A stretch of 64,000 nucleotides of DNA from Eggerthellaceae bacterium (GTDB lineage: Bacteria; Bacillota; Clostridia; Christensenellales; UBA1242): the NCBI GenBank assembly GCA_963602685.1, contig CAVCJG010000005.1, positions 15,047 through 79,046 of the forward strand. The letters are read 5' to 3'. Positions 9,501-33,276 of this stretch are shown piece by piece. The notes below the pieces were generated by a model. It saw only the letters and a list, made by a program, of their open reading frames with translations. It made no database searches and was not told where the DNA came from. The position numbers and the translations under genes are program-made. Numbering within the stretch: the stretch's first letter is position 1; every line of letters starts with the position of its first letter.

Positions 9501-11464
9501 GTAAGCTTTAATTCAAACGCGTTTTCAACGCCTGTTGGAATTGCATAATAACTGCGGTCTTCTACAAAGTATTTTTCGTCGATTGAGTCGATTACAACTG
9601 ACTTGAATCCTTGCAGAGTCTTTTTAACAGAAACTAAAACTTTTGAAGAGATTTTTTCAAGAGTGTAAGTTCCTGATGCGTTCATGATTGGATTGCCATA
9701 TGCGTCAGTTCTAACTGTTGCAAAAACAAGGTTGAAGTCAATCGCTTCTTTTGCTACAAGTTGATAACTGTTGAGCAATGGGTAAAGTTTTTTGGTTTCT
9801 CCGCTTGAAATTGTATACATTCCTGCGCCGTCATCAGTAACAGCAACATAGTCGCCCATGTCCTTTCCGTCAGGGAAAGCGGCGTCATAATAAGCAAAGA
9901 AAACTCTCTTTGTATAAACGTTTTCTGATGGAACATGAGAGATTGTTCTTAAATCGTCTTTATATTCTGAAGAAAGAACGTTTCCGTTTTTGTCATAAAC
10001 GATTGTCATTGAAATGCCAGATTCAACAATACCGGTTTCCCAATAAATGTCAGATTCAACATTTTCTTTTGATTGCATATAAACTTTGCGTTCGGTGGTG
10101 TCGTCAAAGATGTGTGTTACACCGTTTTCGTCTTGAACAAAAAGTTTAATTTCGGCAACGATTTCATATTCGCCGTTGGTTGAGATTTCCCAATATGCAT
10201 GGTTAAGATTTTTAACGTTTGAATTGATTAAAACATATTCTTTTTCGTCGTAAATCTTGATTGCTCCGCCCTTAACTGTAACAAAGTTTGAAAGGTCGTT
10301 AATAATATCAAGTCCTGAGTTTGTATCTTTGATTGAGATAATTCTAAGTCCGACATTTTTAATCATAGATGAAAGGTCGTTGTCGTGAATGTCGCGAATT
10401 CTGATAGAAATTTCTTCATCGGCAAGAGTGCTCACTCCGGCTGAAACTCTAAACAACTTGTTGACAGTAAATTCAAATGGAGAACCTGCTGTTGGTTTGA
10501 TTGAGAAGCTTCCGACATTGGCTTCAACAACGTCAACTTTGATTTGTGTTTTGATTGCTTTTTCAGCGGTTGACAAAACGCGGATTGCTTCGGTGTAAAG
10601 TGGAAGGCCAGCAAGTTCAGAATTATTAGCGTAAAATTCTGCTTGGTCTTCGGCTGAAGCGAATGTGTAGGCATTGATGATGTTGCCAGCTGAAGTTTCG
10701 TTCCCGGCTACGAAATAGATGTCGCCGTCATTGTAGTTTAATGTGATACCTTCGTTTGAAGAAGCTGATTCATAATAAATGTCTTTTTGTCTTTTTGTGG
10801 TGACTGCTTCGTTTTTATCGTCGCTGAACATATATTGGCTTGCTTCTGGATAGAAGGTTGGTTTTAAAATAAAGTTTGTGCCTTGTGAAATTTTGTTTGT
10901 GTCATCAGCTGTAAGTTTGTCGCCTGTTGTAGAGTTGTATGCTTCAAGTTTGATTTCCCCTACTGGCACGTCAACAGCAACTTGGATTTGCGATGAAGTG
11001 AGCGTGTTGTTTTGAGTTGTAACGATAAGGTGTGAGATTCCGCCTTTGTTTAACATATGTTCGTTGCTGTTAGAATCGAGATATGCTTCTTGAACAAGTT
11101 GAACATAAAATTCGTCATTGATTTTTACTTTTTGTGGGACGATGATAATTCCGTCTGAAATTTTTCCGTCTTCGGTTGTGGTTACTGAAACGCCTGATGC
11201 AAAGCTTAATGTGATTTCGTCTTGAGTAACGTTTTCGGTTGGAGTTGTGATTTTAAGTCTAAATTGCTTTACGGCTTCATATTGGGTCGTGGATAAATTA
11301 TAAATGCCATCAACGTCATTTATTTCGATTGACTCTGGAGGTGTAACTTCAGGTTTGAATCCTGTTTTAAGATAGACAGCCAAAAATGAGCCGCCGATAG
11401 CCAGCACAATAACTGAGACTAAGATTAAAATGAGTTGCCAAGTTTTAGGCGCTTTAAGTTTCAT
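596..11464 (-). CDS. Giant (3,622 aa) membrane-anchored extracellular protein, probably many divergent beta-sandwich/Ig-like modules; function unknown
   Basis: Single uninterrupted 10.9-kb ORF. GGAG sits 9 nt upstream of the ATG. N-terminal signal-anchor KTWQLILILVSVIVLAIGGSFLAVYL. The rest is hydrophilic, T/N/K/Y/V/D-rich, almost Cys-free and beta-strand-like. No LPXTG or other sorting motif at the C-terminus. Confidence 0.9.
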   Translation of the reverse strand: MKLKAPKTWQLILILVSVIVLAIGGSFLAVYLKTGFKPEVTPPESIEINDVDGIYNLSTTQYEAVKQFRLKITTPTENVTQDEITLSFASGVSVTTTEDGKISDGIIIVPQKVKINDEFYVQLVQEAYLDSNSNEHMLNKGGISHLIVTTQNNTLTSSQIQVAVDVPVGEIKLEAYNSTTGDKLTADDTNKISQGTNFILKPTFYPEASQYMFSDDKNEAVTTKRQKDIYYESASSNEGITLNYNDGDIYFVAGNETSAGNIINAYTFASAEDQAEFYANNSELAGLPLYTEAIRVLSTAEKAIKTQIKVDVVEANVGSFSIKPTAGSPFEFTVNKLFRVSAGVSTLADEEISIRIRDIHDNDLSSMIKNVGLRIISIKDTNSGLDIINDLSNFVTVKGGAIKIYDEKEYVLINSNVKNLNHAYWEISTNGEYEIVAEIKLFVQDENGVTHIFDDTTERKVYMQSKENVESDIYWETGIVESGISMTIVYDKNGNVLSSEYKDDLRTISHVPSENVYTKRVFFAYYDAAFPDGKDMGDYVAVTDDGAGMYTISSGETKKLYPLLNSYQLVAKEAIDFNLVFATVRTDAYGNPIMNASGTYTLEKISSKVLVSVKKTLQGFKSVVIDSIDEKYFVEDRSYYAIPTGVENAFELKLTLKEAGDAAIFENEKSKITFYASKDIAGKDRVGSDVFEFGEMTLAGDVVTVPVKTKADVNIAEELGTKFFVRVEYNNSVAILDWTAQPADGDKQAGVVVYNQRPKGIANEALKGQTFDVTQTMTSDGTSTISIKGTDVEYTGENAINQFAELINGEDKTVITDVYDRAFKYDYTISSSNSKIVIADNSEKKITFGTGTENGIIVTITAGSVSYSFTLNVSTTGVTRIEVEGAEQNLANPKYSMDGKAGNEVVLKNTSEDDDARNGLLDVFVTSGKYDPNYYTIRLKDESSAALNGMIEFTTGETTTEIKSFKIKENFADDVTISFVATNSDSTLNFTFDITIKKYATEEKVDFANIKYGEYKVNGETKDQKGVADEDKDEDFDPTAIYVYAAFPIDLNEYVKVRLGEADEEGNFTYVKWDQIDKYKNEELVVNSDKVGKFENGKLTFNDVYEPTQYTFTLYVIDGNKYAYYKDLTLVVCPNFKLVQKSSRDLSVKNIKLDNDFTQYFELKRTTLGYGAVQAVDATEIGGISSYEISKYYQLDANKKFVSVLPLDLGYGETYKTITISAKATIKELEKVVATCSANLSLGFSIVELADFSDLFMLGTTIKYNGYDAVWVDRNSATFQKNLGDYYLHSISSNSNGSDDKKIGIKLTGVQNAYNIAGQSINFASKSNDALIAGKSVYFKVFFRDFTDGNLGNDLATWQIPFVWSRVGSKIASYPYETPGDSNTNNTDLNDTLNNPNNLFAEVEGGKTYYLVAPFEYYLDDGKLTIVEEMGKDNKDGNITYTPDENGGGTFTFKKVSFTVNKNNEIKAEGVNNGKLISVGETFTITADEVTTTYYFKSIDTTSKAIVIYKAYVGSKNENGCKINYNGEKQYTYKDSIYGEMLTSLGDDKYLTGLQATDFETNKTSVEFGTLKGQKVYSINGNILTINDIISDTDVETYFEITQKNTNGAIEGLIYRFMLKVKPNATNNNFNFINPSDLPENVNFEIIKNNVTYPFGGSAENLTVENNEDEPIKIDLKAKLGADTQNQDKHRIEDVIQRYGETIPTDISAKANLTVSQLLIDGKDYTKKGNDDKYYQTNEIFTVAIGIVEDSNGKQTELNVTFTNKANAKNVTVKLLREYRNVYGADFEYVFSINASSVEYVMAYNAGDGNFTVGTRDATWKLANTTDAQTVKATTKQRTDSGESNVDPNKVVTVLTHNLEKEKGYKVEYDYKAANPTLSIKLPEFRESEITRNVYFSVDGKVISTITLIIPATVNATQKNQTLTAGGKYAIGDLVKLTTKDAELDTIKTEGGDIDYVNLVDDGKSITIFNAIEDKTITLKLYYKYKYTVTTTNEAGEEITSQIKKTGYVIYTYEIAANIKPKQSLETQSIISGTKYTGITFTSLQQDAKVFSTTGFSLAWSAQDSGLFDTITMSGDGQITIKAKDVAITTSTTVTLTFTYKDLFTFNVSVPVTIYPAYRLKTNYPNPSQTENLTYESVISGAKIDSFLSSAAEFASANRIQAAAAKVNIANGGYDGGYADNYSALTGNASVKIIDIQNMKTVEYGEQTTTGTSVTYYALYANPNSTENSELTVTPEPTVKPETAIFKFTKGNETGVSYVILQVKYHGVSINYTVYVFDNVVSGYVNSTIHRNGEVETIYQDRIDTTDLFNKSRLLKLEVGASALVGAVYYPYVVEVDANGTYTPVTKQGTSEPLVLLQFQLKSEYVGRTIYVDSGVSALQLAANQTIVFFAKADADVTKDAVMTGVTFVRTAGRVEYRYATADGQSIDITNADMQTVQSGSAKTDANTEITTYQVGYRIGDSGTIKSQISYQVEMGLDIAVDRSFTPTDSSSTPTVIEIEAHKGEYYRLVEQAGIRHPSTGELITAKSLGDAELKYEVMDVSSGSSMYRIFDGYKQYQYQNSKFEDYLKLHDIAEQVGKNDSKKIYDYYLFGLGCAADGDYVLVKIIYQYKQNTPSEFYIVVKIVPDYEITLAGEKYEPVVENNSAYVTNKDKPYVFTPSVTDGKSKEMTLAGKDAGEQLISAIRTNWNSTNIAYSFAYVLTQQENSEYNTKANIDKLRLTEAKETINSKEKPYWTKNGNQYKPNIPTIKFAPAEVVFGVKQYFVEITDDYGYKIMFYFNLVPADDQTPTVYEAVSTLNFTEGDDFDVGLVYDAISINETKDDQKNVTKSAEIEYNKAPETDTISKIILQNIDAWGLTTNASEADVKSVLSGKYTSAPKFHDVTVTGVTFKYESDKGESAKHYDGPAASSTFRLGSGQDAVSHEYDETNCCLAGGANASITYKGVTYYSVAQEKNADKLKATITGKLTGTTAPYKWETKINGVDREFEVIKGGTDEAPIYKLKVNGVQHVSGAQLTPVKVDEKVYTTYTVKIDIQGTGANTKPTSVSLEGVYEPYEQRNYYLGLDASEKETSVVTSSGTKNLATDALYWPGANSQYRTLSAGYYKVPYMDGWIYGTSDTTQVSILISLTYKKGVTNKEESCVVVYNANITKKAKFNSTAKVIVDGQKFELGKYITTDPKLCNLKPVGKDETANGTYYDDTLAVTIPAQGQVVLSINVSENDTWKNFVLTRNNTSTTSQRTDFISLSEVYGKTINPEGMGIEVSWAGPDGASVYYGIKNIGSNDKPVYQNKKVESPYGTIELNNKIYGYKLLKIHDGKEIKYKLVMIGEQVTVNEEPTIQWNMVDNYSGSKIVLDGSTYEVGLNDQGDLNLADNTGSYDKDKNEKPEQDLEINEIDHDILYIESAERIPSKTSVTDVYQYSITKSYIIKANGTYYQYKHNFTMTPKYAYFDNGLGQEVVKEIYKTKEDWEELKAVDKNNNYIGYTVKLEDWAKGNTDEKGQKYSDVTVASAALGKSTVEKDDTITTLMDIIKADTKTSALEFTIGKDGTSYTDATIDPIKGTITTGSHYELNKNQYILIRIWIKASGGPGGNFDGKEYGNANYKKLLGELRIYLTDSTKTSNP

Positions 11465-20913: not shown

Positions 20914-22953
20914 TTAGTGCATCCACGACGTATCTTCTTCTTCGTCTTCAACGAAGTTTGATATGCTTGTATAGAACGCATAGTTGGTTGTTGTGTCGTT
21001 TGGTCGCTTTGCAACGCTGTATGCTATTTCAAGATAACTGCAATCAAACTTGCTTTCATCCAAAACACCATACGCGTTGTATGATGAGCCTTCAAGAACT
21101 TTGTAATATCTTCTTGCATCGGTCAATCCCGAAATTGTAATCACACGTTGCTCTTTTGTTGTTTTAAGCGCGTCAGGTGTGTTGAACTTTCCGATTTTTA
21201 CAGGTTCGCCAAATGTGTATTGTTTTAGGGTTGGCTCAAACTCAAATTCAATCGTGCTTGTTCCCCCGACATCAACAGGGCCATCTTTAACACGAACCCT
21301 TTTTTGTATTTCATGAATTGGCGAGCCGTCACCTTTGTTCCAACGAATCGAAACAGTAATGTCCAAAAACTTTTCAGGGTCATAAATGTCGTCGCCGTCG
21401 TTGCCTGCGTCATATTTAATGTCAATCCAAATGTCAGTAACCGTTGTTTCGCGGCTTGGCACAATCACTGCACTTTGATATTCATATGGTTGTTTATTTT
21501 TAAATGGGTCACCACTTCCAAACTTTGAGAAGAAGGTTGTATATGGATAGTCGACAACTTCAGATGCAATGTATGCGTCGTCGATTTTTGTGTCAGTTGT
21601 TGGGTCGTCTTTATTTGCCTTTCCGATTGTTGTCAACTTTCCGCAATAGTCAACTATGGCAGTGACAACATCTTCGTAATAATAGTTTACTTGCTTTTTT
21701 ATGCCATCAACTGTATATTCTGACAATGCTTGTTCACCGATGACATTTTCGAGAATGTATTTTACAATGTCTTTTTTGTTTTTGGTTGTAAGACCAACGT
21801 AAGAGCCAAGACGATTGAATGTTGATTTAATGTCTTCAACAGCAACTTCGGCACTTGTCTTTCCGTTTACGCCAGCAGTTGCAGAGTAGCCGTCAATAGT
21901 GACAACCGGCGCACCGTTCTCACCCGTGTAAGTCACTTTCATATTTCTAGGAGTAATCCCCAGCACTATATTGTAAATAGCATATTCCAATGCACGGTTA
22001 TAGTCAGCGTTGTTTTTCGTTTGATTTCCAATAAATGTTTCTGAAAAAATCGATGGGCTAAATACTTTCCTATTATCATCGCCATTGTAATATGTTTGAA
22101 ATGTTTCAAAATCCAATTTTTTTTCATCGCTCGGCTCGAATTTTATAACCGGACGAGTTGATGTGCTCCCAGATTGATTTTGTCCGTATCTTAATATCCA
22201 TGGCAAATAATTCTCATTCGTGTGCAGTAAACTCCAATTCCAACCCCTTTGATAATCAGCCGCTATGTCGTAATACACAATAGTAGGAACGCCGTCAACA
22301 ACTTCGGCTTCTTCCAACTTTTCAGTTGTGTCTTTACTTTCTGCCTTTTTATAATAAGGTGTAACATTCACGATTTGATAACGCAAAGCATCATACCAAT
22401 AAAGATAACTATCTTTGTTGGCACTTTCAAAATCTTGTGCCAATTCATTCATTTTTTCATTGTTTGTATTTTGATATATTTCGTCAAAAATATTTGGATT
22501 GTTATAAGTAAAATTTCCATATACATAAAACAAGTATGTTAAAATGTCAGTCCCAAAATTGTAATAATATTCTCTGTTTGTTCCTTCTCCGCCATCTTTA
22601 TCAGTAACATTGCCATTAAAGTCGTATGACAAAGGCTTGCGGAGCACCTTAACATAGTCAACCGAAATTCCGCCGGTCATTTCTTCTTTCTTTTCTTCAT
22701 CATCGGTGTCTGGGTCAGAATCGTCGTCGTCATCGTCGTCATCATCGTCAGTTGCTGGCTTATGGTCTGGGTGAGTTGGCGGTGGATCTGACGTGCCAAT
22801 TTCGGTGTCTTGTTTTGGTGGAGTTGGTTTTAATCCGTCAAAAACACTGCATCCGACTGTGCAAGTAAAACAAAACACACTCATCAGCATTGCCAAGATT
22901 GCACGAGAAAAAAATGTTTTAATTTTTGTTTTCACACTTTTATGATATATCAT
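20914..22953 (-). CDS. Lipoprotein of unknown function (679 aa) with a poly-Asp linker
   Basis: Signal peptide ending in lipobox TVG-C, then a P/T/D-rich linker with D10 (ATDDDDDDDDDDSDPDTDDEE), then a large globular part. Confidence 0.8.
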   Translation of the reverse strand: MIYHKSVKTKIKTFFSRAILAMLMSVFCFTCTVGCSVFDGLKPTPPKQDTEIGTSDPPPTHPDHKPATDDDDDDDDDDSDPDTDDEEKKEEMTGGISVDYVKVLRKPLSYDFNGNVTDKDGGEGTNREYYYNFGTDILTYLFYVYGNFTYNNPNIFDEIYQNTNNEKMNELAQDFESANKDSYLYWYDALRYQIVNVTPYYKKAESKDTTEKLEEAEVVDGVPTIVYYDIAADYQRGWNWSLLHTNENYLPWILRYGQNQSGSTSTRPVIKFEPSDEKKLDFETFQTYYNGDDNRKVFSPSIFSETFIGNQTKNNADYNRALEYAIYNIVLGITPRNMKVTYTGENGAPVVTIDGYSATAGVNGKTSAEVAVEDIKSTFNRLGSYVGLTTKNKKDIVKYILENVIGEQALSEYTVDGIKKQVNYYYEDVVTAIVDYCGKLTTIGKANKDDPTTDTKIDDAYIASEVVDYPYTTFFSKFGSGDPFKNKQPYEYQSAVIVPSRETTVTDIWIDIKYDAGNDGDDIYDPEKFLDITVSIRWNKGDGSPIHEIQKRVRVKDGPVDVGGTSTIEFEFEPTLKQYTFGEPVKIGKFNTPDALKTTKEQRVITISGLTDARRYYKVLEGSSYNAYGVLDESKFDCSYLEIAYSVAKRPNDTTTNYAFYTSISNFVEDEEEDTSWMH

Positions 22954-23024: not shown

Positions 23025-24809
23025 TTATCTTGAAATTGAATCTTCTTCTTTATTTCTAAAGTATGCTGATAAAGCAGCCGCTGCTATATCGGTATGTTCG
23101 CCTTCATATGAGATTCTCAATTTCGATGTTGTGCTTGCTGTGTTGCCTTCTTGTCCAGCAATTACTGGATTGTTTACAACTTCTGTGCTTTTTGACACAA
23201 TTTTATATTGTGAATTTTCTTCACCTGTTAAGAATGAGTTGTAAAGACTTTCGTTTGTCGATGTTGTATAATATGGAACATATATTGTATCAGTTTTAAT
23301 TGTAATTGTTCCATTTTCTTTGTAAACAACTGTTGCGTCAAATTGTGAATAGTAACCGGTATTGAACATTTTCTTAGAATCAATTAATCTGGATCCCATT
23401 GCTCCAACGTATGTAGCAATTACTTCTTTGTCTGAGCAAAGTTTTGTACCAAAAGCTTCTTTATCAACTGAATCTGTTGTGTCAACCAATATGTTTTTAC
23501 CTGAAAATACATTTGAATTCAATCCGTTAAAAACTTCTTTTTCACTTTCTAAGTTCGCCTTAAATGAAGCTAAGTCTGTTTTTAAAGTAGTTTCTTCTAC
23601 GCTTCCAACTTCAATTTTTTCTGACATGAACTTATTTTCAACATATTGTTTAAAGTCTGCCGACATTTCTTCGTATCTACTTATATACTGAGATATTATA
23701 TCATAATTTGAACCTTTGTATGGCGTTTTTTCGAGTCTGGTTCTTCCTAGGCTGTCAACTGTCTCCGCATATAAAACAAATGTCCCATTGTCTACTGAAT
23801 ACATTATTAATTTCGCATTCGTTACATAATCATAAATATTCGAAAGATTATTTTCAAGTAATTTTGTTGGAGAAGCAAGAGTATAACCATTGCCAAAGAT
23901 TTCGTTGTAAACTGTATCAAAATCTACATATTCAATAATTGGTTTTTCTTCAAGGGCTGGGGCTTCGTATTTTTTACTTGGGTCGATTGTGCGTGTTGTT
24001 TGGCTGAATCCCTTTCCGCTTGCAATGACATCTTCGATTTCCTTATTGGTCATATTTTCTTTTCCGTCAACCGAAAAAACTATGTCATAAAGCTTTCCGT
24101 CTTTGCCTACTAATGCAACAACCGTTCCGTCTTCACGAACTTCGCTGCTTACTGCAAAGTCATATTTGCCTGTTAATGATTCTGGAAGTTTGATGCTAGA
24201 AACATTTGCAAAGATTTCGTTTACTCTTTCAGGTGTGATTTCACTGATTTGGTCAATTTCGTTTAAGATTGTTTGAACTGCTTGTGTGAATTTTGCATCA
24301 ACTGTGTCTTTTTGGTCTTTTTCAACTTTTTGGTCAGCAGTGTAGCCTGATTTTTCATAAACTACTGTTGCTGCATCTTTGCCACGAAGTTCAGCAAGCA
24401 AGGCGTCTTCATAATAAATAGTTACAGCCTTTTCGCCATTGATTATTGCAACAACTGTTGCAGCGTCTGCCTTTTTAGAATCAAAGTGCAAGTCGGTGAT
24501 TTTAACATCTTTTGTTGAAACATTAAATTGATTTGCAACGTTTTGTTCGATTTCATTGAAAATTGCATTTGTCAAGTTAAGATTTTTGTATGCAGTGTTT
24601 TCTTCAAGAATTTGTGATGCAGTGTATGATGTGTCAGGGCCTGGTGTAGGTGTTGGAGTAGGTGTAGGTGTTGGTGTTTGTCCTGGCTTGTTGCACGCTG
24701 AAAATGAAAAAGCAGTTGTTGCAATAGCAGCGACAGTTACTGCTTTAACAAATCCTTGTTTTGTAAAAACGTTTCTAAATTTTTGAACTAGTTTATCCCA
24801 TAATTTCAT
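23025..24809 (-). CDS. Lipoprotein of unknown function (594 aa from the RBS-supported start) with a (TP)6 linker
   Basis: AGGAGGG lies 8 nt upstream of the ATG at 24809 (MKLWDKLVQKF...). Lipobox FSA-C followed by NKPGQTPTPTPTPTPTPGPD. Confidence 0.8.
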   Translation of the reverse strand: MKLWDKLVQKFRNVFTKQGFVKAVTVAAIATTAFSFSACNKPGQTPTPTPTPTPTPGPDTSYTASQILEENTAYKNLNLTNAIFNEIEQNVANQFNVSTKDVKITDLHFDSKKADAATVVAIINGEKAVTIYYEDALLAELRGKDAATVVYEKSGYTADQKVEKDQKDTVDAKFTQAVQTILNEIDQISEITPERVNEIFANVSSIKLPESLTGKYDFAVSSEVREDGTVVALVGKDGKLYDIVFSVDGKENMTNKEIEDVIASGKGFSQTTRTIDPSKKYEAPALEEKPIIEYVDFDTVYNEIFGNGYTLASPTKLLENNLSNIYDYVTNAKLIMYSVDNGTFVLYAETVDSLGRTRLEKTPYKGSNYDIISQYISRYEEMSADFKQYVENKFMSEKIEVGSVEETTLKTDLASFKANLESEKEVFNGLNSNVFSGKNILVDTTDSVDKEAFGTKLCSDKEVIATYVGAMGSRLIDSKKMFNTGYYSQFDATVVYKENGTITIKTDTIYVPYYTTSTNESLYNSFLTGEENSQYKIVSKSTEVVNNPVIAGQEGNTASTTSKLRISYEGEHTDIAAAALSAYFRNKEEDSISR

Positions 24810-24916
24810 TAGAGATTCCCTCCTATTGTTATTAAATTCTAGCACACTTTTAAGTGAATTTCAATAGTTTATTGAAAAAATTGTTGTAAAAAACGCGGTG
24901 TTTAGATTGTTTTTGT

Positions 24917-25852
24917 CTAAAATCTTTCAAAAACACGCAATTTTGCCGAGTGCGAGCGGTCGTTGCGCTGCAATTCTTCGGCGCTGGCGGTGATTGGCTT
25001 TTTGTTTATCAACTTGCCTTTTGCCTTGTGGTGGCAGATGCAGACTGGTGTTTTTGGTGGGCAGATGCAGTCTGTGACGGCGTCTTTTAGCACATTTTTT
25101 ATGATGCGGTCTTCAAGGCTGTGAAAACTTATCACAGCAAGGCGGCCACCTGGGGCGAGCAGGTCGACAAAGTCTTCAACTGCTTGGCTTAAAATGTCAA
25201 GTTCGCCGTTCACTTCAATTCGTATTGCCTGAAAGGTCTTTTTGCTGACGCCACCCTTCCCGTAAATTATCTTTTTAGGAAACGCGCTTTCGATTATCTC
25301 TTTAAGTTGCAATGTTGTTTCAATCGGAGCGGTTTGTCGGGCTTTGACGATTGCCGCTGCGATTTTTGGAGCGAAACTTTCTTCGCCATACTTAAAAATG
25401 ATGTCGCGAAGTTGTGTTTGCGAATAGCCGTTGACAACGTCGTAGGCGCTTTTTGTTTGGTTGCGGTTCATGCGCATGTCGAGTGCGCCGTCGTGGAGAA
25501 AACTAAAACCACGCTCGGCGGTGTCGATTTGATAACTGCTTACGCCAAGGTCGGCCAAAATTCCGTCAACCTTGGTTATGCCAGCGCGGAGCAAGGTGGA
25601 TTTTGCGTCTTTAAAGTTTTCGTTGAAAAACGTAACGCATGAAAAAGGCGAAAGCCGCCTTTTGCTTGCTTCAATCGCGTCGCTGTCTTGGTCAAAGCAG
25701 ATTAGTCTGCCGCCCTTGCCTAGTCGCTTCGCAATTTCGCTGCTGTGGCCTCCGCCCCCGCACGTCATATCAACATACACTCCGTCTGGGCGTATGTTTA
25801 ATGCGTCGATGCATTCGTGCAATAATACTGGTATGTGTTGAAATTCTGTCAA
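24917..25852 (-). CDS. rsmH: 16S rRNA (cytosine1402-N4)-methyltransferase
   Basis: FQHIPVLLHECIDALNIRPDGVYVDMTCGGGGHS is typical RsmH/MraW. TTG start with GGAGA RBS; the TTG overlaps the TGA stop of the upstream gene (TTGA). Confidence 0.9.
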   Translation of the reverse strand: MTEFQHIPVLLHECIDALNIRPDGVYVDMTCGGGGHSSEIAKRLGKGGRLICFDQDSDAIEASKRRLSPFSCVTFFNENFKDAKSTLLRAGITKVDGILADLGVSSYQIDTAERGFSFLHDGALDMRMNRNQTKSAYDVVNGYSQTQLRDIIFKYGEESFAPKIAAAIVKARQTAPIETTLQLKEIIESAFPKKIIYGKGGVSKKTFQAIRIEVNGELDILSQAVEDFVDLLAPGGRLAVISFHSLEDRIIKNVLKDAVTDCICPPKTPVCICHHKAKGKLINKKPITASAEELQRNDRSHSAKLRVFERF

Positions 25853-28704
25853 ACTGTTTCTCCAATAAGTGTTTTGAATTGTGCAATGATGTCGCGATCT
25901 ATTTCGCTGTCCGCTTCAAGTTCGGCTATCTTTGCATCAAAGTATGTCTTTTGTTCGGTTGTGAGCGATGCGTCAACTTCAAGTGAGTTTGCAAGCGCAA
26001 GTATCTCTTTCGCGCTTTCTTGGTTGGCTTTTACTGCGCTCATGAGCGCGTCAACTGACGCCGTGTCTTTGTTGCCGTCGATTGCAACGTTTTTAAACGC
26101 TTCGGCAAATGCGTTGGCTTGTTTTGTCATGTTGATAAACTTAAACATGTCGTTAAAGTTGATTTCGTAGATGTTTGCCGCTTTGAATACGTCAAGGAAG
26201 GTGATGTTGAATTCGCTTTCCGCTTTTGCTATCATTGCGTTGAACATTGATTTTGTCACGCCCGCTGTTGCCTTGCCTTGCAGTTCGATGCGGTATGCGT
26301 TTTGTTTCATTTGTTCAAGAAGGTTGCCAAGCAAGATTTCGTCAATGTCTTCAAGGTTTGTCATTGTCGCGCTGGCGTTGTAAATCTTAACAAATGTTTT
26401 TATGATTGTTGTAAATTCTGATGCTTGGCTGTCTTCGCCCGTAAATGACGCTGGGTTAAGCAACATTGAAACTGCGCCGTCGCCGGTCACGTCTTTGATT
26501 GTGCTTACGACAATGCCAGCGAGTTGGTCGCGAAGCGGTTGCAAACTCTTTGCTGTCAGCACTGGTGGCATAACTTTGTCGAGCGTTGCGTCATCAAGTT
26601 TTTTAACAACTTCTTTCATGTCGCCGTCTTCGGTCAACAAATAGTCAAGCATGGTTTGTTTGGTCTCTTCGTCAAAATATTTGCTTTCGAGTTCGGTTAT
26701 CACAACTGTGAGTTGTGGAAGGTCGCTTGCCCAGTTTGCATATGATGCTGCCCAGTCGTTTTCAACTTCTAAAAGTGAGAAGTCAACCACGCCGGTTGTT
26801 TTGCTGCCGTCTATGATTGGTGTGAATATTTTGTCTTGAAGCGCTGTCACTTTGTAAAGTGGAAGCAGAACGTCGCTCATGAATGTTGAATATGCGGTGT
26901 CTGTTTTTTCACTTACAAGTCTTTGCGCAAACTTTTTGAGTATGCTGTTGAAGTTTACTTCGCCGTGCATGTCGTCGTAGATGTCAAGCGATATGAGTTT
27001 TTCAATCGATGGTGACATAAACTCAAACACGCCTTTGTAGGTTTCAATTGACTCGCCTTTCACGTCTTTTAAGTCGGCAAGTCCAAATTTGTTTAACACT
27101 CTTGGCATGAGTTTGTTGCCGTCGGTGTCGGACATGAACTCTAAGTTGTCGATGCAGTCAATCATGTTTCCAAATCTAGAAAGGATTTGTGGAACGTCGT
27201 TTTTAAGTTTTAATATCGTCATAAAGTCGCTTGTGATGTCGCCAAGGGCTACGTCTTGCTTTTCAATCATGCCGTTGATTTTGCCAACTTCGACGATTGT
27301 GTTTTTAACTTTTGTTTTCAAGCCGTCCCAGTCGGTTATGTTTGTATTGGCATCGGCAAGGATGTTGCCCAGTTCTTCATCCGAAACTTTTGTGAACACT
27401 GTTTTAAGTGCTGGTGAAAGCGCGTCACGAACTACGTTTAAGTCAAACAAGTTGTTGACCGCATTTGTAAGAACTTCGTCATAATTGTCGACCAAAACTG
27501 TTATCGAACTGAGCGTGCTTTTTTTGCCGACAACTTCTTGCAAATATCCCGATTTGCCCGCGCCGCTGATTGTGTAATAAATTTTGTCAATGTCAGGTTT
27601 GAAATATTCGGCGTATTTGTCGTTTGCCGAGATTGCTACGCTGACGTTTTTGAGTATGCCTTCATACTCTTTTAAGTCTGGAATAATCTTTACTAAGGTT
27701 TCGTAGTTTGTGATTGATTCGCCGATAATGTTTAAAACTACACTGTTGTAAAGTGAATTGCTTGTAACCGACTCATACGTCTTGTCAAGTTTTTCCCAGT
27801 CAATGCTGTCAAGGTCTTCGGCGTTGATGATTGCTGAAATATCTGTGTAAAGTGTGTAATAGTTGTTAAGTTCGCTTCTGAATTTGATTCGCTCGCCGTT
27901 GATTTCAACTTTGGCTACTTCGTCAAACATAAAGTCGTCCATGCCCGCCACGCCGTTAAGCACTCCAAGCGCGCTTTTGTTGACGCCGTGAACAATGTTT
28001 TTCACAACTGGTGGAAGCGATTCTAAAAAGCCTTTGTTTTCTTCGTCGCTGCTTGTGTCTCCGCTTTCGCCCGTGCCCGCGCCTGCGTCTGTGCTTGCGC
28101 CGTCGTCTTCGCCAACGATTTCAACAGCGGCTGAAACTTCGGTTGTATGCGCAGGGATTATTTGATCTGCAAATTTAACAGCACTTGTCAGTGGCATAAA
28201 CATAACTAAAACAAGTGCAAACATTTTAAATGTGCTTATAAGTCCGCCGACCCAACGATTGCGTTTGAGCCCGAGTTCTTTTTCTTTCTTTTTTGATTTG
28301 AAAACAAGCGAAATAAGTTTGTAAACAATATAAACAATAAGACGTATAACAAGGTTGAGCACCAAGAACACAACGGCCGCCATCAAAACGACTGGAAGTT
28401 TTTCAAGCAACTGCATCGTGCTTGGAGAGTTGTCGATTAAATTGGCAACGTCTTCATTTTCTGAAAGCATATTGACAATGAAAGTTTGAAGCGATGTTGT
28501 TTCGCCATTTGCTGTCACTTGAATTCCTAAAATTGCGTTTGTTACAACAGGCGTAATAAGTGCCACGATAATAATTCCCGCAATGGTGATTCCCAGTTCA
28601 AGCGATGAGCGTTTAACGCCGCGAATAAAGCCCTCCAAAAAGCCGAGCCCTAGCAACACAAAAAACACTACATCGATAATTGCAATAATTGCGCCTGCTG
28701 ACAT
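25849..28704 (-). CDS. Large membrane protein (951 aa) with an N-terminal CvpA-like multi-TM domain and a long helical C-terminal extension; sits in the mraZ position
   Basis: The N-terminus IIAIIDVVFFVLLGLGFLEGFIRGVKRSSLELGITIAGIIIVALI resembles the CvpA family. 4-5 TM helices in the first about 190 aa, an acidic G/S/T/D linker, then about 700 aa that appear helix-rich (inferred from composition). Confidence 0.75.
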   Translation of the reverse strand: MSAGAIIAIIDVVFFVLLGLGFLEGFIRGVKRSSLELGITIAGIIIVALITPVVTNAILGIQVTANGETTSLQTFIVNMLSENEDVANLIDNSPSTMQLLEKLPVVLMAAVVFLVLNLVIRLIVYIVYKLISLVFKSKKKEKELGLKRNRWVGGLISTFKMFALVLVMFMPLTSAVKFADQIIPAHTTEVSAAVEIVGEDDGASTDAGAGTGESGDTSSDEENKGFLESLPPVVKNIVHGVNKSALGVLNGVAGMDDFMFDEVAKVEINGERIKFRSELNNYYTLYTDISAIINAEDLDSIDWEKLDKTYESVTSNSLYNSVVLNIIGESITNYETLVKIIPDLKEYEGILKNVSVAISANDKYAEYFKPDIDKIYYTISGAGKSGYLQEVVGKKSTLSSITVLVDNYDEVLTNAVNNLFDLNVVRDALSPALKTVFTKVSDEELGNILADANTNITDWDGLKTKVKNTIVEVGKINGMIEKQDVALGDITSDFMTILKLKNDVPQILSRFGNMIDCIDNLEFMSDTDGNKLMPRVLNKFGLADLKDVKGESIETYKGVFEFMSPSIEKLISLDIYDDMHGEVNFNSILKKFAQRLVSEKTDTAYSTFMSDVLLPLYKVTALQDKIFTPIIDGSKTTGVVDFSLLEVENDWAASYANWASDLPQLTVVITELESKYFDEETKQTMLDYLLTEDGDMKEVVKKLDDATLDKVMPPVLTAKSLQPLRDQLAGIVVSTIKDVTGDGAVSMLLNPASFTGEDSQASEFTTIIKTFVKIYNASATMTNLEDIDEILLGNLLEQMKQNAYRIELQGKATAGVTKSMFNAMIAKAESEFNITFLDVFKAANIYEINFNDMFKFINMTKQANAFAEAFKNVAIDGNKDTASVDALMSAVKANQESAKEILALANSLEVDASLTTEQKTYFDAKIAELEADSEIDRDIIAQFKTLIGETV

Positions 28705-28829: not shown

Positions 28830-29357
28830 TTATATCGTTTTGTTAAGTTTTGCACTTTGCAAAAGTTTTTCCATGTCACGATCGCTTTTCAAAATGATAA
28901 ATTTTTTATCTGGATATTTTTTCATAAGCGGTTTAAATTGTTTGCCATAATCCTTTTTAAAATTCAAAACGTGACGGACAAACTCGATGTCAAGTTTTTC
29001 GTCGCAACCCTCCGCCCTGTCAACGCGGTCTTTATTTTGATTTTCGTCATATCTTTTAAAAATGCGTTTTAAACAAGTGAGCGTTGAATAGTTAAGCCAA
29101 ATCACGGCGTCGGCTTGCTGAGTTCGCATTTCAAGCGTCGACGAATAGTTGCCGTCCAAAATCCATTTGTCATTTGACATGATGTGATTAAGCGTTGCGC
29201 GCCACTCTTCTTTTGAAGGTTTTTGCCAGTTTGGCTTGTGATAGATTTTGTCCAAATGATAAATTGGCAAATCCAGCACTTCCCCAAGTTTAAGCGCCAG
29301 CGTAGTTTTGCCCGATCCGGGACACCCCACTATGATGATTTTTTTAATTTTTTCCAT
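28830..29357 (-). CDS. P-loop kinase-fold protein (adenylate-kinase-like / FlaR topology-modulation family)
   Basis: KIIIVGCPGSGKTTLALKLGEVLDLPIYHLDKIYHKPNW...WILDGNY. Confidence 0.65.
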   Translation of the reverse strand: MEKIKKIIIVGCPGSGKTTLALKLGEVLDLPIYHLDKIYHKPNWQKPSKEEWRATLNHIMSNDKWILDGNYSSTLEMRTQQADAVIWLNYSTLTCLKRIFKRYDENQNKDRVDRAEGCDEKLDIEFVRHVLNFKKDYGKQFKPLMKKYPDKKFIILKSDRDMEKLLQSAKLNKTI

Positions 29358-29434
29358 TTTTTAGCCTCCTTTTAGAAAAAATTTTTTATGTAAACTAAAA
29401 AATCACACCTACCTATTCGTAGATGTGATTTCGC

Positions 29435-29887
29435 TTACTCCTGTTTTTGTCCACACTCTTTGCAGAATGCTGAATCTCTGTCAATCTCTGCTCCGCAGTG
29501 GCTGCAATACTTAGTATCTTTTAAACCTTCCTTAACCGCTCTGGCTGTTGTTGTAACTGCATCGCTTGAAATGTTTGCTGATGTTGAAGCAATGTCTTTC
29601 AAGTCTCCTGCATTTTGCTGTTGCATATATTTTGCACTTTTAACCGCAATCTTTTTAAACTGTGGAATGAACCCTACAAACAACAACACTACTGAGCACA
29701 TGCTTAGCGTGCTGCCAATCATCAGTGCGATAATGTTTGGCTGGAATGTATCCATGAAAGGTTCACTGAAAGCTGTGCAAGCAAGCACAATCAATGTGAT
29801 GCCGCCAACCAGTGCCAGAAAACCTAAAATTTTACAAATTAAAAAGTGAACTGGTGCTTTTACGTCGTTCTTTACTTCGTTTTCCAT
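29435..29887 (-). CDS. Two-TM membrane protein with a C-terminal zinc-ribbon
   Basis: Two hydrophobic helices, then YCSHCGAEIDRDSAFCKECGQ (CxxC-10-CxxC). Confidence 0.65.
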   Translation of the reverse strand: MENEVKNDVKAPVHFLICKILGFLALVGGITLIVLACTAFSEPFMDTFQPNIIALMIGSTLSMCSVVLLFVGFIPQFKKIAVKSAKYMQQQNAGDLKDIASTSANISSDAVTTTARAVKEGLKDTKYCSHCGAEIDRDSAFCKECGQKQE

Positions 29888-29948
29888 CTTCTCCTCCGAT
29901 GTAGATGTAATCTTAACATATTAAAATAAAAATGTCAAAAGTTTTTGT

Positions 29949-30221
29949 TTATCTGCTAAGGTCGTCACCATTGTCACGGCTGTCTTTGCGTGAAGCGCGA
30001 GTGTATTTTGTTCTTTCGATATATTCGCCGTCAACCTTTACAAGTTTTCCACGTCCAACATGCCAATCAAGAACATATTTAACCATTGCTTCGTCCACCA
30101 TAATTCCATAAGTTATCCAAATGCTTAAAATGATATCTCTTGGATTAATAAATTTTCCTTTAAACTTTCCAAATATTTGTTCTTCAATCAATTTAACCAT
30201 TTGAGTTTCTGTGGTATACAT
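29949..30221 (-). CDS. Small winged-helix-like protein, paralog 1 of 4 (90 aa)
   Basis: Shares with its three neighbours the pattern hydrophobic helix - V.xxL.xxxxxGK/hydrophobic - G.Y(I/A) wing - acidic tail. Tail is DNGDDLSR. Confidence 0.6.
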   Translation of the reverse strand: MYTTETQMVKLIEEQIFGKFKGKFINPRDIILSIWITYGIMVDEAMVKYVLDWHVGRGKLVKVDGEYIERTKYTRASRKDSRDNGDDLSR

Positions 30222-30236
30222 AATTTTTTCTCCTTT

Positions 30237-30494
30237 TTATTTTATCCCAAAAATTTCACACAAATCATCGTCTGTGGTTTTGGCGTATTGTCCGCGTTCA
30301 TATTTTAACAGATTTTGGTCGCAGAGTTCTGACAAAACGTGCATGATCGAAAGACGATCAACAAGTTTTTTGCTTTGAATTTCTACTTCGCTTTTGAAAG
30401 TGTAAAAATCCATAGGCGTATAAAGTTTGTTTGCCGCTTTGATTACCGCCCTTCTTTCTGCTTCCATTCTTTCTATTGCTGCTTTGTTTGCCAT
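30237..30494 (-). CDS. Small winged-helix-like protein, paralog 2 of 4 (85 aa)
   Basis: LSIMHVLSELCDQNLLKYERGQYAKTTDDDLCEIFGIK. 15-nt gap to paralog 1. Confidence 0.6.
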   Translation of the reverse strand: MANKAAIERMEAERRAVIKAANKLYTPMDFYTFKSEVEIQSKKLVDRLSIMHVLSELCDQNLLKYERGQYAKTTDDDLCEIFGIK

Positions 30495-30506
30495 ATCTTT
30501 ATCCTT

Positions 30507-30746
30507 TTATCTTGCGTAGTCATCACTAACTGGAATATATCCGTCTGGTGATTTAGTTATTTCTTTCTTATCACACAATTCTTTAAGCGCTGCTTGAACT
30601 CGATGAATTTCAATTTTTCTGTTGACTTCTTCAGATGCCATTAAAGCAATCGTCTCAATCGTTGCCGGTCTATAAAGGTTTAACACAACTTTTTTAACCG
30701 CTTGAATTTCTTCGTGATATCTTTCTTGTCCACTTTTATAAAGCAT
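30507..30746 (-). CDS. Small winged-helix-like protein, paralog 3 of 4 (79 aa)
   Basis: IEIHRVQAALKELCDKKEITKSPDGYIPVSDDYAR. 12-nt gap to paralog 2. Confidence 0.6.
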   Translation of the reverse strand: MLYKSGQERYHEEIQAVKKVVLNLYRPATIETIALMASEEVNRKIEIHRVQAALKELCDKKEITKSPDGYIPVSDDYAR

Positions 30747-30754
30747 GATGTTTC

Positions 30755-31018
30755 CTATCTTGACAATTCGTCATCGTCGTAAGTAGTGCCAACTGCGATG
30801 TATCTTCCGCAATTCGAGGCAACCTTTCCTTCCGAGCGCATTTGTTGCAAAAGTGAATGAACTGAATAAGAATCTAAGCGATAGCCATAATCTTCTTCAA
30901 GTTGTGTGATGATGTCTAAAAGTCCCGCTCCGATGCCAAGTTTTTTAATTGTATGAAAGATTTCTTTTTTAATGTGTTTGGTATTTTGGCTTGCAGTATT
31001 TGCTTTTTTGTCTAACAT
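30755..31018 (-). CDS. Small winged-helix-like protein, paralog 4 of 4 (87 aa)
   Basis: SYSVHSLLQQMRSEGKVASNCGRYIAVGTTYDDDELSR. 8-nt gap to paralog 3. Confidence 0.6.
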   Translation of the reverse strand: MLDKKANTASQNTKHIKKEIFHTIKKLGIGAGLLDIITQLEEDYGYRLDSYSVHSLLQQMRSEGKVASNCGRYIAVGTTYDDDELSR

Positions 31019-31095
31019 TTTTGTCTCCTAATGTTGAAACATTATATCATGGCAAAAACTAAATTTCAAGACCCTTCAAAAAATAAACCCGAAAA

Positions 31096-31602
31096 CTAGT
31101 GGTCTAGTTTTTTCATTTTTTCGTTTATTTGTTTGTTAAATGACGAAAATTCTTCATAAAGGTCGGGCATGTTGAATTTGTCGGCGTAAATTTTTGATTG
31201 TTTGATTGCGTCGTATTTATCGATTTCTCTAACAAATTGCGCTTCTTTTGAATCACCACTGACAAACTCTTTCCAAAGAGATTCAATCTCTGGCATATCA
31301 TATTTGGTTGCCAAGCGGTGCATGGTTTCTTCCTGCTTTTTAAGGCGGTCTTCAAACGAAATGTGATCGTGTGGCGTAGCGTCGCCCACGTCGATTTCGT
31401 CAAGTTCGTGATATGTAATCATCTTAACGACTTTAAGTTCGTCAAGTCCCAAATCGTTTTTGTGCATAATTTCAAGCGCAAGCACAACCATCGAAAATGT
31501 GTGTTCGGCGTCGCTTTCAATTCTGCCGGGAACATGACGGTCAAGCCAGCCCTTTCGTTGAGTGGTTTTTAATTTGTAGATTTCTTCATAAAGTGAATTC
31601 AT
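31096..31602 (-). CDS. HD-domain phosphohydrolase (YfbR-like 5'-deoxynucleotidase family)
   Basis: QRKGWLDRHVPGRIESDAEHTFSMVVLAL...ITYHELDEIDVGDATP...REIDKYDAI. The usual HD dyad reads HE here. Confidence 0.7.
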   Translation of the reverse strand: MNSLYEEIYKLKTTQRKGWLDRHVPGRIESDAEHTFSMVVLALEIMHKNDLGLDELKVVKMITYHELDEIDVGDATPHDHISFEDRLKKQEETMHRLATKYDMPEIESLWKEFVSGDSKEAQFVREIDKYDAIKQSKIYADKFNMPDLYEEFSSFNKQINEKMKKLDH

Positions 31603-31681
31603 ATTTTTCTCCTTAAAAACATTTTAACATCTCTGACATAATTTTCAAACAAATTTAAAATAAACATATAAAATAAAATGT

Positions 31682-31723: not shown

Positions 31724-31814
31724 GCAGAAGTACTCAAGTGGTCGAAGAGGCTTCCCTGCTAAGGAAGTAGGACGGGTAACTGTCGCGAGGGTCCGAATCC
31801 CTCCTTCTGCGCCA
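31724..31814 (+). tRNA. tRNA-Ser (anticodon GCU), class II with long variable arm, CCA encoded
   Basis: Acceptor GCAGAAG / CTTCTGC. Anticodon stem CTTCC / GGAAG with loop CTGCTAA. Variable arm GACGG-GTAA-CTGTC. T-arm GAGGG-TCCGAAT-CCCTC. Discriminator G plus CCA. Confidence 0.9.
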
Positions 31815-31817
31815 ATT

Positions 31818-31846
31818 AAATCCGAGTTCGCTCGGATTTTTTTGTT
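31818..31846 (+). terminator. Terminator after tRNA-Ser
   Basis: ATCCGAG-TTCG-CTCGGAT hairpin followed by T7. Confidence 0.75.
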
Positions 31847-31913
31847 TTCTTTAAACTATTGAAAGGCACAGGCAAGTGTGATATAATAGAATTGTTAAAC
31901 AAAGGAGAAAACA

Positions 31914-32570
31914 ATGAAACAAATCACCTGCCCAGTTTTCAGAGATCCAGCAAACAACGGAATCACTCCCGTTTGGAACAAAAATTGCAAAGTTTTGCTT
32001 TTGGGCTCAGTAACCGCCGCAGATGGAATGCGCAAAGGTTTTTATTATGGCAGCAAATACAATCAGTTGTGGGAACTTTTAGACAAGTCATTAAACACAA
32101 CTTGTTTTAGCAAACTTAAAGAACAACTCAACTCAAACTATATCGCATATTCTGAAAAACAAAAAGACGAGCGAACATTTTTAGAAGACCGTGCCATCAT
32201 CTCAAATCAATTTAAAAAAGAACTTTTGTCGCGCGGCATAGCAATGTGCGACGTGTTTAAATCGTGTTATGCAAATTGCGGAAGTTCGCTTGATCAAGAC
32301 ATTATTTTAAACAACCCAGCATATCCTGTCACAACCTATCGCGACGAACTTGAATATTTTTTAAACAATTCAAACATTACAACAGTGATTGCAAACAGCC
32401 AGTTTGTAGTAAAGCAATTTGAAAAAATGAATATTCAAGGAAACTTTGAAGTCGTTTATGTTCCAAGCCCATCACCTCGCAAAGGCGCAATCGACACAAA
32501 AATCGACGCTTGGAAAGACGCCTTGGCCGACGCTTTAAACGAACCATTTAAAGAGCCTTTGGTTTTATAA
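31914..32570 (+). CDS. Uracil-DNA glycosylase superfamily protein (family-6 / deoxyinosine-glycosylase-like)
   Basis: KVLLLGSVTAADGMRKGFYYGSKYNQLWELL matches the LLLGSxP...YY...N.FW pattern. C-terminal VPSPSPRKG matches the PSxSP motif. Assignment made by motif memory only. Confidence 0.5.
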   Translation: MKQITCPVFRDPANNGITPVWNKNCKVLLLGSVTAADGMRKGFYYGSKYNQLWELLDKSLNTTCFSKLKEQLNSNYIAYSEKQKDERTFLEDRAIISNQFKKELLSRGIAMCDVFKSCYANCGSSLDQDIILNNPAYPVTTYRDELEYFLNNSNITTVIANSQFVVKQFEKMNIQGNFEVVYVPSPSPRKGAIDTKIDAWKDALADALNEPFKEPLVL

Positions 32571-32653
32571 GTCCCTTGCGTTAAAACATAAAGCCAATTT
32601 AAGCATTTAATCTGCACAACAAACTTTTCATCAAATGTAAAATATTTCAGCAA

Positions 32654-32688
32654 TAAAAAAGCACCTCCGCCGAGGTGCTTTATTTTAT
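32654..32688. terminator. Bidirectional terminator between convergent genes
   Basis: AGCACCTC / GAGGTGCT 8-bp stem flanked by an A-run and a T-run. Confidence 0.65.
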
Positions 32689-32694
32689 TAAACA

Positions 32695-33276
32695 TTATAT
32701 TTGGAATTTTAATGTTTTTTCATTATATCTTTTCAGTGAGCCCAAATATTCAAAATTCGTAACATCTCTATCAAATTCATAGTTACTCATTTCATATCCC
32801 AAAGTTTTAGAAATTTCCATTTTAAATAAATCGCGGCAAACTGCTTTGTCAAGATCTGAAAGAAGTCCATATGAAACTTGCAATGACTTTCTTGTAATTT
32901 CAATCGCTCCATTGCTTCCATCGTTTGGCAATGCAGAAATTGCTTCGTCAATCGCGTCAACATTTTTGTTGTTGATTGCATCCACAATATTTGCTATATC
33001 ATACAACATCAAAGCATATGATTCTTCCATGTGCGCAAAGCCAGGTTTAATGTCTCCAATCAACGCTTTCATATCTGTGTTTGTATAGCAGAATCTAATA
33101 ATTTCTTCAGCAAGTTCTGCTCTTTCAGGATTGCCATCCTTATCAAGTTGAACCTTAAATACATTTTTAATTTCATCAAGATCATTTGCGATAGATGATA
33201 ATGAACCATGCAAATCTTTCATGCTTTGTTCTGCATCTGAACTAAATTGTCTTGGTTTATAATCAAATTTTCTCAT
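32695..33276 (-). CDS. Hypothetical protein (193 aa; composition suggests a helical fold)
   Basis: ORF with GGGGAGAG RBS. No recognisable motif. Confidence 0.55.
   Translation of the reverse strand: MRKFDYKPRQFSSDAEQSMKDLHGSLSSIANDLDEIKNVFKVQLDKDGNPERAELAEEIIRFCYTNTDMKALIGDIKPGFAHMEESYALMLYDIANIVDAINNKNVDAIDEAISALPNDGSNGAIEITRKSLQVSYGLLSDLDKAVCRDLFKMEISKTLGYEMSNYEFDRDVTNFEYLGSLKRYNEKTLKFQI

Follow-up and report, generated by a model that had tools for sequence, protein, structure and literature searches.

The window analyzed here, i.e., the whole 64,000-nucleotide (nt) stretch at positions 15,047 to 79,046 (forward strand) of contig CAVCJG010000005.1 in assembly GCA_963602685.1, was derived from an Eggerthellaceae bacterium (GTDB lineage Bacteria; Bacillota; Clostridia; Christensenellales; UBA1242). 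Its open reading frame (ORF) list included seven ORFs, all co-oriented on the minus strand, at the places where the initial annotation had described seven tightly spaced genes. Four of them, encoding consecutive proteins of 79 to 90 amino acids (aa) and designated S1 to S4 in transcription order, are the main subject of this analysis: S1 to S4 are collinear, diverged paralogs of a new sequence family, predicted to adopt the winged helix-turn-helix (wHTH) fold, and this family is restricted to one syntenic clade of uncultured gut Clostridia. Coordinates are positions in the window; L-numbers denote related loci, P-numbers related proteins, and G1 to G4 the ortholog groups of S1 to S4. The S array and the features around it were as follows:

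30755-31018, minus strand: S1, winged-helix protein, 87 aa (ORF; wHTH topology in AlphaFold2)
30507-30746, minus strand: S2, winged-helix paralog, 79 aa (ORF; similarity to S3)
30237-30494, minus strand: S3, winged-helix paralog, 85 aa (ORF; similarity to S2)
29949-30221, minus strand: S4, winged-helix paralog, 90 aa (ORF; similarity to S1)
29435-29887, minus strand: protein with two transmembrane segments and a C-terminal Zn ribbon, 150 aa; optional last gene of the S unit
31041-31069, minus strand: S-array promoter-like site, extended -10 type (TTGAAA, 17 nt, TG-n-TATAAT; consensus match plus conservation)
29910-29938, minus strand: second promoter-like site, 5' of the Zn-ribbon gene (TTGACA, 17 nt, TG-n-TAAGAT; consensus match)
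29399-29432, minus strand: intrinsic-terminator-like hairpin closing the S unit (14-pair stem, then a T run)
31096-31602, minus strand: HD_3 phosphohydrolase (HDDC2/YfbR-like, HE variant), 168 aa (Pfam HD_3); a neighbor outside the S unit
31621-31648: promoter-like site of the HD gene (consensus match)
28830-29357, minus strand: FlaR-like P-loop kinase, 175 aa; a neighbor downstream of the terminator-like hairpin
31724-31814, plus strand: tRNA-Ser(GCT), constant landmark on the upstream side of the array (ARAGORN, Rfam)
25849-28704, minus strand: 951-aa membrane protein with a CvpA-like N-terminus (weak Pfam Colicin_V match), the constant downstream neighbor; it and its homologs are called the 950-aa protein below
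24917-25852, minus strand: rsmH, whose start was overlapped by the stop of the 951-aa gene

The intergenic gaps from the HD gene through to the P-loop gene were 77, 8, 12, 15, 61, and 77 nt, respectively. S2, S3, and S4 shared one reading frame, with just a stop codon and 12 or 15 nt between them, and each S gene had its own ATG and Shine-Dalgarno-like sequence; the in-frame arrangement of S2, S3, and S4 was not kept in L014 or L016.

The pairwise sequence comparison of S1 to S4 gave blastp E values of 8e-8 for S2-S3 and 1e-5 for S1-S4, with all other pairs at 0.04 or weaker. At the level of ortholog-group profiles, hhalign matched G2-G3, G1-G4, and G1-G3 with probabilities of 96, 89, and 75%, respectively, in the same register throughout, and the comparisons G1-G2, G2-G4, and G3-G4 gave no significance on their own; the four groups were therefore linked transitively, as two pairs. 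The similarity was above chance, and S1 to S4 arose through tandem duplication. AlphaFold2 modeling of S1 from an 18-sequence family alignment (predicted local distance difference test [pLDDT] 83, predicted template modeling score [pTM] 0.75) displayed the topology H-b-H-H-b-b with a helix at residues 3-27, a bridge at residue 31, helices at 33-44 and 50-62, strands at 66-69 and 72-75, and a disordered tail after the wing. This confident model has the three helices and C-terminal beta-hairpin wing (H1-b1-H2-H3-b2-b3) of wHTH domains in general, and S1 is thus predicted to be a classical wHTH protein. The top Foldseek matches of the model in the PDB were all wHTH structures (LmrR/PadR, RosR, MCM4 winged-helix [WH] domain, Z-alpha, and Rok); they were generic, with a best E value of 6e-3. 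Taken together, blastp, hhalign, and the S1 model bore out the earlier proposal of four diverged wHTH paralogs. The G-x-Y wing motif that had been proposed as a shared feature was present in the window proteins and was lost in two S2 orthologs.

Scanning of S1 to S4 against Pfam, PHROG, NCBIfam, and PADLOC yielded nothing below E 0.01, and no Pfam match appeared up to E 1. The PADLOC defense models gave no meaningful match to the cluster proteins: the best S match was E 0.017 to a pAgo model, and the kinase had generic P-loop matches only. A profile search of PDB sequences with the S family returned nothing significant, the best wHTH hit being the MCM4 WH domain at E 0.19. The initial annotation knew of no described system with this architecture, and the small proteins matched no described family in all these searches. 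Among 5.8 billion proteins, a word-seeded profile search identified 15, each a close ortholog of S1, S2, S3, or S4. Exhaustive HMMER searching of 1.84 billion cluster representatives recovered these four groups again and added three members of greater divergence, namely the S2-like P0019 and P0022 and the 213-aa P0017, in which an S3-like domain is fused to an S4-like one. Scanning of DNA collections with an S2-only alignment added three further loci (L021-23), all of the L016 type, and no S-array match was found in the phage and plasmid DNA collections, which speaks against a mobile array. S1 to S4 thus belong to a sequence family that is new within a well-known fold and whose organization is unusual but not unprecedented.

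The HMMER search also returned long proteins with 4 to 12 tandem wHTH repeats (P0016, P0018, P0020, P0021, P0023, P0024, and P0025; E 1e-12 to 7e-4), which matched HARE-HTH, AbiEi_4, HTH_12, Linker_histone, or DUF5457 models. Their single repeats scored 5 to 20 bits each against the S profile, and therefore the link to S was at the fold level only; membership of the S family was rejected, the significance being a sum of many weak generic matches. Five of these proteins (P0016 at L019 6001-7851, P0023 at L020 6001-7887, P0018, P0021, and P0024) were 530 to 1030 aa long and consisted almost entirely of 5 to 12 tandem wHTH repeats of HARE-HTH/AbiEi_4 type, each ending in G-x-Y-A-x-L-x-F-D/E. P0023 was encoded on a 921-kb contig next to genes for type IV secretion, and upstream of it lay another AbiEi_4-like protein. 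The contexts of the multi-repeat proteins, one beside WhiB and zeta-toxin-like genes and one beside type IV secretion genes, offered no lead for the window.

The comparison of gene neighborhoods was applied to all S-bearing contigs, which shared a common synteny: nrdD, trxB, nrdG, dut, then LOR, variable genes, and tRNA-Ser; next the HD gene where present, the S array, the Zn-ribbon and kinase genes where present, the 950-aa CvpA-like protein, and rsmH; and finally two large unannotated proteins followed by an FtsI-type penicillin-binding protein (PBP). Within this frame the composition varied as follows:

Window, L001, L002, L005, L006, L017, and L018: HD gene present; S1, S2, S3, S4; Zn-ribbon gene present; kinase gene present
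L016 and L021-23 (human gut): HD gene absent; S2, S3, S4; Zn-ribbon gene present; kinase gene present
L013: HD gene present; S1, S2, fused S3-S4; Zn-ribbon gene absent; kinase gene absent
L014: HD gene absent; S1, S2, S4; Zn-ribbon gene present; kinase gene absent
L015: HD gene absent; S1, S2, S4; Zn-ribbon gene absent; kinase gene absent
L025: HD gene absent; two S4-like genes; Zn-ribbon gene absent; kinase gene absent

The array thus contained 2 to 4 copies, and the order S1-S2-(S3)-S4 was kept, with S3 and S4 fused in L013 (P0017); L015 and L016 likewise had tRNA-Ser immediately upstream of the array. S1 orthologs were 87 to 97% identical in close strains and 28 to 29% identical in L013 and L015, and S2 orthologs (38 to 90% identical) were present in all array-bearing loci except L025. 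S4 was the most variable member, ranging from 99% down to 34% identity among genomes with flanks 88 to 99% identical. L025 (4957-5668) harbored two S4-like genes (112 and 89 aa) at the array position, together with a 950-aa protein 59% identical to that of the window; the C-terminal tail of its 112-aa product was basic instead of acidic. L024 and L026, with 950-aa proteins 39 and 29% identical, contained no detectable S gene in any frame, and the pairing of the 950-aa protein with rsmH persisted in both, ahead of the FtsI-type PBP. The tie of the array to the 950-aa protein therefore holds only within the array-bearing clade.

The earlier expectation that the small-protein family would co-occur with HD and P-loop genes did not survive this comparison, because the HD or the kinase gene was missing in L013-L016, L021-23, and L025. 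HD homologs of 43 to 58% identity were found in other Clostridia metagenome-assembled genomes (L007-L011, one of them Candidatus Caccovivens), and neither small wHTH genes nor a kinase gene stood beside them. Since the HD, kinase, and Zn-ribbon genes come and go while the array persists, the array is not tied to them; as neighbors, the HD nucleotidase and FlaR-like kinase are unremarkable and vary among relatives.

Predicted transcription signals divided the seven genes accordingly. The promoter-like site in the HD-S1 gap (31041-31069) matched 11 of 12 consensus positions, and its -35 box and TG-n-TAnAAT box were invariant in the alignment with L001, L005, L013, and L014; it was kept although the L013 and L014 proteins are only 28 to 40% identical and a divergent MarR gene takes the place of HD upstream in L014. 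At the second promoter-like site (29910-29938), the -35 box and TG were conserved in L014. The same hairpin sequence (…CACATCT…GGTGTG…TTTT) occurred directly 3' of the last S gene in L015 and L013, both of which lack the Zn-ribbon gene; in the window it lies between the Zn-ribbon gene and the kinase gene, which therefore falls beyond the predicted terminator. The S array would thus appear to be a short operon of its own, composed of S1 to S4 plus the optional Zn-ribbon gene, between a conserved promoter and a terminator. The initial treatment of the seven genes as one unit would be at odds with the predicted conserved promoters before the HD gene, S1, and the Zn-ribbon gene and with the predicted terminator before the kinase gene.

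Among the flanking proteins, the HD protein matched Pfam HD_3 with E 5e-27 and 95 bits (cutoff 22.5), and on this above-cutoff match it is a predicted nucleotidase of the HD_3/HDDC2-YfbR-like type. Its closest solved structure was human HDDC2 (E 2e-17), to which H34 and H65 were conserved with E66 in place of the dyad aspartate; the HE reading of the dyad given earlier was thereby confirmed, H65-E66 being aligned to the HD of human HDDC2. The HE dyad was also found in the 43 to 58% identical homologs of L007-L011 and is therefore a subfamily trait and not a local mutation. The Zn-ribbon protein displayed two hydrophobic segments followed by C128-x2-C131 and C142-x2-C145, and its Pfam Zn_ribbon_3 match (E 1e-6) agreed with the protein first described as having two transmembrane segments and ending in a CxxC...CxxC ribbon. 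The P-loop protein carried the Walker A motif GCPGSGKT and matched NCBIfam PRK08118 ("DNA topology modulation protein", FlaR) with E 1e-54 and 185 bits; judged by this model match, the kinase is clearly related to FlaR, below the equivalog cutoff of 215.

The far side of tRNA-Ser(GCT) (window 31724-33276) was variable in gene content across L013-L016: the window had a deoxyinosine-glycosylase-like gene at 31914-32570 (TIGR04274 E 3e-13, below cutoff) and a 193-aa protein at 32695-33276 that was 62 to 64% identical in relatives, and relatives had TetR, TMEM164, MarR, HXXEE, or collagen-binding genes at the same tRNA-flanking place. Between rsmH and the PBP gene, the 606-aa (23025-24845, minus strand) and 679-aa (20914-22953, minus strand) proteins had no Pfam match; the former was 54 to 68% identical in strains with RsmH 95 to 99% identical, making it a fast-evolving, lineage-specific division-cluster component. 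Elsewhere in the window, a single 3622-aa ORF at 596-11464 (minus strand) would encode a giant protein, with no Pfam match at E 1e-5 or better.

The S genes were the least conserved genes of the neighborhood across loci. Among close strains, the ratio of nonsynonymous to synonymous substitution rates (dN/dS) was 0.17 to 0.53 for S1 to S4 versus 0.04 to 0.10 for HD, kinase, 950-aa protein, and RsmH. Between the window type and the L016 type, (i) protein identity was 88 to 99% in the flanks versus 59 to 61% for S2, 69% for S3, and 34 to 35% for S4, (ii) dS was 0.14 to 0.44 in the flanks versus 1.6 to 1.8 in the S genes, and (iii) dN/dS was 0.02 to 0.17 in the flanks versus 0.12 to 0.34 in the S genes, where dS was saturated. 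This divergence of S genes relative to flanks points to an old, diverged allele that recombined into an otherwise similar genome, with purifying selection kept. As to whether the small ORFs are genuine genes, a doubt raised in the initial annotation itself, homologs were found and dN/dS ranged from 0.12 to 0.53; the S genes are locally the fastest evolving, yet under (relaxed) purifying selection.

A further allele was found in L017 (8001-8258, P0009), in which S3 was 72% identical to that of the window, with S2 and S4 being 90 and 99% identical, respectively. All 24 changes of the L017 S3 fell in residues 21-56, a stretch running from the last part of helix 1 through helix 2 and the turn into the beginning of helix 3, and its first 20 and last 28 residues were identical to the window S3; its dN/dS of 0.67 relative to the window was one pairwise outlier. 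This clustering on the helix-turn-helix surface of S3 is compatible with the idea of specificity variants put forward at the outset, and the accompanying link to the HD and kinase enzymes is not supported.

All peptides and C-terminal tails quoted at the outset (DDDELSR, DNGDDLSR, DDDLCEIF, and SDDYAR) were present in the window. The net charge over the last 12 residues was -1 to -3 in the window S1 to S4 and reached +2 among some orthologs; short in themselves, the acidic tails fade in L013-L015 and are kept in the closest strains only, so that their presence in all four window proteins stands and their conservation in more distant orthologs does not. Charge as a whole was not conserved either, with S-protein pI values of 4.1 to 9.2 and S4 ortholog net charges of +2 to -14. 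An origin of the "DDLSR" codons in the ribosome-binding site of the next gene was considered and rejected, because the S4 tail precedes a 61-nt gap.

The S proteins were also compared with known systems. HARE-HTH, AbiEi_4, RNase R-type, and linker-histone winged helices (PF05066, PF13338, PF08461, and PF00538) have in common with S the fold of three helices plus a beta-hairpin and the pattern hydrophobic-x-x-L-x-x-hydrophobic, then G-K-hydrophobic...G-x-Y; S proteins differ in having no Pfam match even at E 1 and in being encoded by separate single-domain genes with no partner domain. More specifically, the HARE-HTH model (PF05066) matched the multi-repeat proteins only and none of S1 to S4, and relative to AbiEi (PF13338), the S proteins are 79- to 90-aa single domains without a model match or antitoxin domain, with no AbiEii nucleotidyltransferase gene in the neighborhood. 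PadR/LmrR gave the best structural matches (TM-score 0.65 to 0.72 to LmrR), with a long N-terminal helix followed by a wHTH in both; however, the Foldseek E value was 6e-3 at 13 to 14% identity, no Pfam PadR match was found, and the PadR C-terminal dimerization helix is missing from S.

The RNA polymerase delta subunit RpoE of Bacillota is composed of a HARE-HTH domain and a long acidic domain of roughly 70 to 100 residues. It resembles S as a small wHTH protein with an acidic C-terminus, but the S tails have 3 to 5 acidic residues that are not conserved in orthologs, and S had no HARE-HTH match. MraZ, a conserved double SpoVT/AbrB-fold protein, is usually encoded by the first gene of the cell-division (dcw) cluster upstream of rsmH. 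The S array and the 950-aa protein take the position normal for mraZ, preceding rsmH and the FtsI-type PBP; unlike MraZ, S proteins are predicted wHTH proteins, fast evolving, and absent from relatives that keep the 950-aa protein-rsmH pairing. ScpB/kite tandem-WH proteins, excisionase-type wHTH proteins, and polymorphic-toxin immunity arrays were rejected as candidates, since there was no model match and no kleisin/SMC, integrase, or toxin gene nearby.

The reading preferred here, held with evenly balanced confidence, is that S1 to S4 would constitute a lineage-specific, co-expressed set of small wHTH nucleic-acid-binding regulators or adaptors, with an operon of their own separate from the HD and kinase genes. 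Transcription would start at the extended -10 promoter (31041-31069), run through S1 to S4 and optionally the Zn-ribbon gene, and end at the terminator (29399-29432), and the S proteins would be made together in similar amounts. Each wHTH would be a small nucleic-acid-binding module with its own specificity, and the S proteins may work side by side or as a hetero-oligomer, as suggested by their tight co-translation, by a gene order that is conserved, and by the fusion of S3 with S4 in one lineage. The binding surfaces would change fast between strains, and position would make the promoter of the array itself and the head of the neighboring dcw cluster the best target candidates. The nucleic-acid-binding version is preferred because of base rates for stand-alone bacterial wHTH proteins.

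Several points weigh against this reading: (i) the promoters and the terminator are predicted consensus matches, the support for which is their conservation; (ii) no dimerization element is evident in the S proteins; (iii) the AlphaFold2 model of the fused S3-S4 protein of L013 is of low confidence (pLDDT 58, pTM 0.39) and displayed no confident inter-domain packing; (iv) nothing but position links the array to the dcw cluster, and this link is lost where the 950-aa protein is 39% identical or less; and (v) the neutral-to-acidic charge is unusual for sequence-specific DNA binders and favors a protein-binding role.

The last point leads to the main rival, an unlikely one on our weighing, in which S1 to S4 would be protein-binding adaptors: a wHTH hetero-oligomeric scaffold would dock onto a protein partner, without DNA binding, via its variable helix surface and a short C-terminal acidic-hydrophobic motif, and the candidate partners would be the 950-aa CvpA-like membrane protein, the Zn-ribbon membrane protein, and division proteins. 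Such a role would agree with an overall charge between neutral and strongly acidic that differs from ortholog to ortholog, with the placement of the array directly upstream of the 950-aa protein and rsmH region in every array-bearing locus, with the S3-S4 fusion, and with the protein-binding wHTH domains (MCM4 WH and Rpa2 WH) among the weak sequence or fold matches. It is less easily reconciled with the conservation of the 950-aa protein (dN/dS 0.07 to 0.17) while S changes fast, with no sign of co-variation, or with 950-aa homologs of 29 to 39% identity that have no S genes, and the Zn-ribbon gene is optional.

The evolutionary pattern could also be that of a conflict-driven hypervariable cassette, an improbable explanation, in which diversifying or balancing selection would act and whole alleles would be exchanged between strains, the products being immunity-like or decoy proteins or else regulators that sense or silence invading DNA. 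The two haplotypes among genomes with flanks 88 to 99% identical (one of them missing S1 and HD), the excess of between-haplotype dS in the array over that in the flanks, the confined changes and raised dN/dS of the L017 S3, the copy number of 2 to 4, and the adjoining tRNA gene with variable gene content beside the array would all be expected of such a cassette. However, no toxin, nuclease, integrase, or known defense gene lay nearby, no PADLOC, phage, or plasmid match was found, and long-range dN/dS is well below 1; the lineage-specific 606-aa and 193-aa proteins are variable too, and fast change may be typical of such genes in this organism. A more far-reaching combination, which we regard as quite improbable, is that a hypervariable cassette of 2 to 4 co-translated wHTH proteins would form a hetero-oligomer at the division-cluster head in a reduced-genome gut Clostridia clade and would either replace MraZ-type control or be a conflict or recognition module with swapped alleles.

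Very improbable is the seven-gene operon first proposed, in which the wHTH variants would lend specificity to the HD nucleotidase and the P-loop kinase as subunits, or would act as mimics for them. The genes are indeed co-oriented and close together in the window and its closest relatives, and both enzymes handle nucleotides; however, the entire 20-kb synteny is common to the close relatives, which makes their shared order uninformative, predicted conserved promoters and a terminator separate the parts, HD or kinase is missing in L013, L014, L015, L016, L021-23, and L025 while the array stays, and HD homologs elsewhere have no such neighbors. Decay, e.g., of a multi-domain wHTH protein broken up by stop codons, is hardly credible: the single frame of S2 to S4 with their short spacers, the fused form in L013, and the relaxed constraint would suit it, but none of the genes lacks an ATG or a Shine-Dalgarno-like sequence of its own, lineages at saturated dS still retain them as separate genes with dN/dS of 0.12 to 0.34, L014 and L016 do not share the in-frame arrangement, and AlphaFold2 gave a confident compact fold for S1.

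The earlier proposed link to nucleotide metabolism does not survive the comparison with related genomes. If the preferred reading of S1 to S4 as a co-expressed set of nucleic-acid-binding wHTH proteins is true, they would add one more lineage-specific small wHTH family, of concern chiefly to annotators of uncultured gut Clostridia. Three features go beyond the routine: one domain is kept as 2 to 4 separate, tightly packed genes and was once fused; the alleles are deeply diverged between otherwise near-identical strains; and the array stands at the division-cluster head, next to a 950-aa CvpA-like protein in the usual place of mraZ. Only the last two would be worth follow-up.

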